In this document: piece by piece, positions 3,791-4,049 of the stretch | Layout: every line of letters begins with the position of its first letter | Position numbering within the stretch: position 1 is the stretch's first letter | Notes under the pieces: model-generated | What the model was told of the DNA's origin: nothing | Databases searched by the model: none | What the model saw: the letters and a program-made list of their open reading frames with translations, nothing else | Origin: Eledone cirrhosa | Lineage: Eukaryota | Assembly: GCA_964016885.1 (NCBI GenBank) | Contig: OZ024741.1 | Coordinates: forward strand, 36,890,001 to 36,954,000 | Direction: 5' to 3' | DNA length: 64,000 bases | Translations under genes and position numbers: made by a program

Positions 3791-4009
3791 GCGATTCCCT
3801 CGGCCTCACTGACCAAAGTCAGTGGAGAGGGGAAGGTAATGTTTCTGTAGCACGTGTTTTAGCGTCTATTCACTCTCTCTCTCTCCCTCTCTCCCTCCCG
3901 CTATCCCCCTCTTGTAGTCTGTCTCTTTCTTTCACTCTCACTCTCTCCGCAAGTGTTTCCACTGTCGGACAGACAGACAGAGAAATTGCTGGTTATATAT
4001 ATAAGTAGA
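3791..4009 (-). mobile_element. Helitron 5' module type B, copy 2
   Basis: Direct repeat of 4342-4554 and of part of 2728-3036. Its TC start abuts the CTAG at 4010. Confidence 0.8.
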
Positions 4010-4049
4010 CTAGCAGAAAACCACCTGCGGGCGGTTTTCTGCTAGTCTA
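4006..4049. repeat. Second double-CTAG hairpin (17-bp outer stem)
   Basis: TAGACTAGCAGAAAACC-ACCTGCGGGC-GGTTTTCTGCTAGTCTA. Confidence 0.95.

Follow-up and report, generated by a model that had tools for sequence, protein, structure and literature searches.

Can a single short palindrome be the end of a Helitron on both strands at once? At 4006-4049 of the window (the whole stretch of 64 000 nucleotides analysed here), an earlier note made from the letters alone had seen two inverted arms, each with a CTAG leading straight into the start, or head, of a Helitron, and had suggested that such a site might both terminate and restart copying on either strand. The structure itself is as described: 17-bp arms enclose a 10-nt spacer, the plus-strand CTAG (4042-4045) runs directly into a head of family A starting at 4046, and the minus-strand CTAG (4013-4010) directly into a B head starting at 4009. 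The canonical Helitron end recognized at 858-885 is genuine too, with a weak fold (z -1.1). At 4006-4049 the predicted folding energies of the two strands are -18.4 and -20.6 kcal/mol (z about -9 and about -10), equalled by none of 200 shuffles, and the terminal CTAG is base-paired within the predicted stem. The outermost 4 bp of that stem arise because both heads start with the same four letters, and do not belong to the tail, whose core is 4010-4045.

Within the window the arm has four exact matches (0.65 expected), forming two palindromes, at 2228-2264 and 4010-4045. A search of the 3.0-Gb genome that contains the window (G000) for the pattern of the earlier note, a 36-37-bp palindrome, gave 1669 exact sites, and the reversed control gave none. 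The motif is thus a family and not a one-off, and with over 1600 sites chance and assembly artefact were rejected as explanations.

The palindromes in their stack

Read on the minus strand, the window contains three stacked elements, in the order M2a (4554-4010) on M5 (4009-2228) on an A-family element (2227-858), with these parts:

4010..4554, minus strand: module M2a, 545 bp, with a TC B head at 4554 preceded by A, then B body, an inverted A fragment and the palindrome
4342..4554, minus strand: B head and the first 221 bp of the B body
4046..4334, plus strand: inner inverted 5' fragment of family A (passenger head), from the interior of the composite element A*; the A fragment within M2a is 286 bp
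4010..4045, no strand assigned: palindromic Helitron 3' end with 13-bp outer arms, a GC inner stem and a short loop; the exit CTAG on the minus strand is 4013-4010
2228..4009, minus strand: module M5, with a B head at 4009, B body to about 3338, a 300-bp spacer, a second (B') head at 3036, an E minisatellite at 2265-2737 and a palindrome
2228..2264, no strand assigned: second palindrome, an E tail whose loop, read along the stack, has the opposite polarity; it exits onto an A head at 2227
858..2227, minus strand: resident A-family Helitron at the bottom of the stack, with TC at 2227, a canonical hairpin and CTAG|T at 885-858, and an interruption at about 1021-1785

The layout of M5 recurs in L057-L059, L070, L078, L115, L116 and L118. 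The resident A element is interrupted at 1307-1786 by a separate, near-perfect palindrome of 480 bp (arms of 240 nt, 99% alike, with nothing but a TA run as spacer), and related foldback sequence lies upstream in L032.

The two-headed module moves one way

The earlier note inferred two directions of copying from the two heads; do the copies of M2a bear this out? The two-headed junction is frequent: of 634 candidates 40 were scored, and at least 36 of these match over nearly the full length. It makes up 8 of the first 50 exact sites listed. We took the 29 closest copies, ranked by the internal junction. All 29 have the same two ends as the window's module (4010..4554), and all start with a TC head and end with CTAG. 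The palindrome is, as first proposed, a Helitron terminus, and forms the 3' end of non-autonomous Helitrons that are small and lack genes. The outer B head is preceded by A and unrelated flank in 23 copies and by another tail in 6, and after the palindrome there is a TC in 29/29, belonging to heads of many families. A wider set of 81 M2 exits fell into 20 clusters, 14 of them singletons (some clusters split one family).

None of 90 inner A heads of M2 was found free of the palindrome or starting an element of its own; each is placed behind a palindrome, whether intact or damaged. Sites with B on both sides of the palindrome, or C on both sides, or body on both sides, were absent from 179 sites. 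The movement of M2a is therefore one-way. Re-initiation on both strands is not borne out, the inner A head (initiating in 0/90) being a fixed internal fragment of one lineage; nor is bidirectional or rolling-hairpin copying, given the one-way ends, the absence of a B-B site among the 179, and loops that are not in a 50:50 ratio (see below). There are heads on both sides of 4010-4045 because M2a carries, just before its tail, the inverted 5' fragment of another Helitron. For the CTAG|TC where the module exits, an insertion site is a better account than a circle junction.

What precedes and follows the palindrome across the genome

Flanks were counted in the first 50 listed sites on contig C1 and in the best-scoring 30 loci for each query, a sample that is not random and in which some loci are duplicated (L029/L030, L189/L192). 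In the first 50 sites, one side of the palindrome is always a fixed body: C in 23, D in 10, the inverted A head in 8, the E minisatellite in 5 and F in 4. The C, E, F and inverted-A bodies belong to modules that start with a B head and have a TC head after the palindrome. D is an ordinary Helitron of 486 bp, with a TC head, the palindrome followed by T, and unrelated flanks; its head is preceded by A in 26/30 copies and by G in 4/30. One of the four D heads that follow G (among L281-L310) stands behind another tail.

A tabulation of all loci analysed, from which edge rows were dropped, gave 228 distinct sites. As predicted, a TC head nearly always follows the palindrome, in 186 of 191 non-D sites, and the remaining five are heads with changes of 1-2 nt; at D sites the figure is 5/31, all 31 beginning with T (Fisher p = 5e-24). 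Every row has a fixed module body on one side, three apparent exceptions with other sequence on both sides being mutated D bodies. A MITE, or a palindrome moving alone between unrelated flanks with target duplication, was considered and rejected (0/228 sites). When palindromes were sought downstream of B heads (29 loci), TC came next in 24/24. As controls, a head follows canonical G ends in 1/28, and the 29 A' heads divide into 6 capped by the palindrome, 1 capped by another tail and 22 without any tail before them. Not every head is a target, because none of 30 copies of D has its head capped by a palindrome module and none of the autonomous RepHel heads in view (L231-L250) is capped.

Probable insertion exactly at the starts of other Helitrons

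Another resident, A* (L201-L230), is a non-autonomous composite Helitron about 1.3 kb long, in which a complete inverted A head is nested close to the 3' end. This inner head is a hot target and offers a fixed A|TC site that is empty at 30 loci and filled, at the same nucleotide, at 30 others (among the filled loci L171 was the query, and L189/L192 look duplicated); these are paralogous A* sites rather than the window's own site. At least six module types (M1, M1b, M2b, M3, M5 and F) occupy it, singly or stacked. In all 15 filled loci where the end of the stack is visible, the sequence of the resident head continues beyond the last palindrome (14 with TC, 1 with CC), one of the 15 continuing as a plain A element; in the remaining filled loci another B head comes next (4) or the end is out of view (11). 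The surrounding 30 bases contain 11 other AT steps, yet the same A|TC was used.

Which came first, the cap or the element beneath it? Median pairwise distances for caps and for their A' targets are 0.012 against 0.075 for C (n=8), 0.027 against 0.065 for M2 (n=17) and 0.022 against 0.085 for F (n=9), the targets being 2.4-6 times more diverged than their own caps. On the target tree cap type is unclustered (15 changes, compared with 14.6 when shuffled). An earlier and noisier run, which included a duplicate pair and truncated caps, had medians in the same direction but a Mantel rho of 0.51 (p 0.03) for C. Judged by these distances, the caps are younger than their targets. From the empty and filled A* sites and the younger caps it therefore seems likely that the modules target the starts of other Helitrons; at the CTAG|TC junction, the end of a module meets the T of the resident head. 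For the window's own stack there is a weak hint of a state without the cap, in one contig of sequencing run X1 (which carries another organism label) that follows 4554-4950 and is then unlike the B head. Runs X2-X4 agree with the window at 100% in places and may be its source, X5-X7 stop short of the junction, and no empty allele of this site was seen in these data.

What might direct a module to a head? The symmetry of the tail is not the cause of targeting, because D, with the same tail, disperses. The B head is the likelier determinant, since D-headed elements disperse while L139, a B'-headed module with a piece of D tail, sits on a head.

We also draw attention to L027 and L029/L030 (on C1, at 60.5 and 61.2 Mb), which share 2.2 kb of 3' flank and A' element at 94-98% identity but diverge outward from the palindrome, with different caps and different 5' flanks.

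Origin of the second head

M2b, a relative of M2a, consists of a B' head joined, within a shared GA tract, to the interior of A* (linker and inverted A), after which the palindrome is placed exactly at the position of the A* target site. M2a and M2b have in common a derived base that is present in 88/90 copies and in 0/29 A*, which points to one founder. Thus the second head is likely to be an inverted passenger fragment captured once, and the two-headed lineage M2 likely arose at a copy of A* whose internal inverted head was capped. Two routes can be envisaged. An A* copy with an E-tail module as its cap may have been read through backwards; such capped copies are present in L181, L186 and L198, and their reversed palindrome has the polarity of M2. 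Alternatively, hairpin-primed fold-back at a C-capped copy may have been followed by a switch back into the GA tract of the cap.

Fold-back is on record at one of the 228 sites, L279 (G000:C1:23672902-23676090), where it is local and centred on the palindrome, the capped A' head being duplicated in reverse over about 190-196 bp. The arms are 99.5% identical over 190 nt, compared with 95% or less at other two-headed sites. A free head corresponding to the F tail was not found: all 30 F segments lie behind a palindrome.

Strand symmetry of the terminator

Read in the direction of the module, the loop has one form in 50/50 C tails and the opposite form in 17/20 E tails; 75/78 M2 tails and 6/6 F tails are like C, and D loops are mostly of GAA type. 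The proposal that either strand of the palindrome can terminate an element therefore stands, because the E and C tails, of opposite polarity, both join varied heads. Loop polarity would be without effect because the last 26 nt, read from either strand, are a canonical GC hairpin followed by 11 nt ending in CTAG. A flip/flop replicon would have its loops about equally in both forms; those off the majority form number 0/50 in C, 2/78 in M2 and 3/20 in E.

Compensatory stem changes, which had been put forward as a check on the fold, were looked for in 178 sites without success: 45 changes were one-sided and none two-sided. The only two-sided arm change is that of L279, where a mutation was copied onto both arms by fold-back. 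M2 loops have undergone long C-run expansions and whole-arm deletions (L155, L158, L160 and L026:4780; L159, L163 and L065), which likely reflect instability of the longer two-headed palindrome; C-tail loops are stable.

For the Helraiser transposon, a change to the loop is reported to have cut activity to the level seen with no hairpin and abolished terminator function (PMC4778049), and this sits uneasily with the polarity-blind loops described here.

A possible mechanism

Our main reading, to which we give a probability of about 0.78, is that a B-headed, non-autonomous clan of Helitrons has the palindrome as its 3' terminus and is sited at the A|TC of other Helitrons, likely through integration at a Rep nick, and that the second head is a passenger, likely captured once. 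From the module ends, their exact position, the empty and filled paralogous sites, the younger caps and the one-way movement we infer the following route. A RepHel enzyme acting in trans would copy from the B head and stop at the palindrome. Rep would also nick a resident head at A|TC; the tyrosine-linked TC of the donor would then be joined to the freed A-3'OH of the resident, and the donor CTAG-3'OH to the resident TC. Repeated rounds of this exchange with nicked resident heads would stack modules, as in the window's M2a on M5 on A. Helraiser provides some precedent: its left end is essential and its hairpin is the terminator (PMC4778049), and its enzyme makes, and precisely cleaves, top-strand end junctions (PMC5876387).

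Is a suitable enzyme available? At least 150 RepHel matches were scored, among 3704 candidates in the genome, and there are several young autonomous families with TC...CTAG ends. None of the 20 examined among the 150 scored matches was an autonomous element with a B head or a palindrome tail. Four or more autonomous RepHel families bounded by TC...CTAG are represented by the loci L231-L250; some are 96-99% alike, and L231 has an open frame of 1718 aa.

A bolder version, for and against which we find the balance about even, would make these modules a site-specific hyperparasitic clan. It would insert by strand exchange at nicked Helitron left ends, with specificity residing in its own 5' end and not in its tail, and its symmetric terminator would spawn new modules by fold-back or back-reading through capped heads, the E, F and M2 tails representing three births.

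Alternative explanations

How well would other histories account for the same junctions? In one, which we think unlikely, the amplified units are composites, copied whole from a B head to a far canonical end, so that the palindrome is a bypassed internal remnant and circle permutation or recombination generates the different heads. [quoted passage not shown] Against this history, divergence is 2.4-6 times greater in the targets than in their caps, and cap types do not cluster; many module types share one paralogous site at which other copies have no insertion, and some target families are singletons. The order of events could also be reversed, with residents as the incomers: B modules would already be in place and A-type Helitrons would enter at their CTAG|T ends, which predicts an identical CTAG|TC junction and was raised for one maize pair (Du et al., PMC2267711). 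That would oblige older elements to have struck every B module (186/191), although the caps are the apparently younger part, and A* sequence on both sides of the stack forms one continuous pre-existing empty site, so that we consider this history highly improbable.

The bidirectional hub of the earlier note, a site nicked and re-initiating on either strand with two-way rolling-circle or rolling-hairpin copying, draws on the hairpin-CTAG|TC present on both strands and on the service of both loop polarities as tails. The E, F and inner A tails meet the body-side CTAG exactly at a T, L279 is a local fold-back on the palindrome (99.5% over 190 nt), and internal inverted heads are recognized, as the A* inner head is a target. 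It nevertheless seems very unlikely that such a hub operates, in view of the inner A heads of M2 (0/90 free or initiating), ends of one direction in 29/29 copies, the lack of B-B, C-C and body-body sites (0/179), the absence of flipped C tails (0/50) and the rarity of fold-back (1/228 sites). The one-way insertion of B-headed modules at resident heads remains the reading that we prefer.

Relation to known systems

By their termini and their insertion at A|T, these elements are non-autonomous Helitron1 (HLE1) elements, from which the paired CTAG and the choice of heads as targets depart. The 5' TC is present in all 29 M2a and all 30 D copies, and the 3' CTRR takes the form of CTAG in all 29 M2a and at the 31 D sites, where T follows. 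Insertion at A|T without target duplication is seen in the A* sites (30 empty compared with 30 filled) and in the A or tail before 29/29 M2a copies. An HLE1 element has a short hairpin 10-15 nt before its 3' end, with CTAG outside it; here the distance from the GC hairpin core to the end is 11 nt, which matches Helraiser and Xuan1, and the extension of the predicted stem through CTAG is a variant. Helitron2/Helentron (HLE2) membership was rejected, as insertion here is at A|T and the ends are TC and CTAG; HLE2 elements are described as inserting at TT or TC and having asymmetric terminal inverted repeats (10.1101/2025.11.06.686955).

Helraiser-Helibat1 (PMC4778049, PMC5876387) and wheat Xuan1 (PMC13286980) share with our elements the TC and CTAG ends, A/T insertion without duplication, a hairpin 11 nt from the end and a non-coding character. 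Unlike them, the stem described here pairs the terminal CTAG, giving a strand-symmetric end, and for the B-headed modules the site is the A|TC of another Helitron instead of scattered AT sites. The dissimilar head-to-tail Helitrons at maize r1 (Du et al., 2008; PMC2267711) likewise have CTAG|TC between unrelated elements, read as consecutive insertion, and insertion at a host A plus the T of a head is one of the two models given there; but that was one case, whereas here it is the rule for a clan (186/191), with the order fixed by empty and filled sites. Tandem arrays in bats and plants (as cited in PMC5876387) have head-to-tail CTAG|TC junctions too, there regarded as rolling-circle concatemers of the same element, whereas the stacks here are mixed, in any order, with the younger parts outside. 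Telomere-targeting Helitrons of Paramecium resemble the clan in their inferred sequence-specific integration and fixed orientation, although their target is a telomeric repeat, not a Helitron start, and they form a clade apart from HLE1/HLE2 (10.1101/2025.11.06.686955). In the openly searchable literature no description came to light of a Helitron family that targets heads, nor of a terminator that pairs its own CTAG.

There may be further analogies beyond Helitrons. Parvovirus rolling-hairpin termini involve HUH nicking beside a palindrome, and relaxase-mediated recombination at oriT is a strand exchange between two nicked origins. Strand exchange of two nicked origins is the chemistry proposed here; unlike a rolling-hairpin replicon, the palindromes described here have neither a 50:50 flip/flop nor two-way copying.

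Why might this matter? To our knowledge, the Helitrons tested for target choice show only AT preference. If the left end of a resident is a landing pad, it would offer a programmable and precise route of integration for an HUH transposase, and would provide a second explanation, besides rolling-circle concatemers, for the head-to-tail Helitron junctions encountered in genome studies. Families that share a tail but are B-headed or D, with about 97% and 16%, respectively, before TC, amount to a natural swap experiment, and the symmetric end is a probe of what Rep reads in a terminator: the stem, the loop or only the last 26 nt.

Other features of the window

Finally, the sequence at about 8230-9000 of the window resembles what we take to be a decayed LINE reverse-transcriptase fragment. 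A C-rich satellite with a 38-bp unit occupies 13135-22691 in about 250 copies and, over a spacer of 100 bp, faces a G/T-rich satellite of about 33 kb (22788 to about 55700) with units of 24-54 bp.
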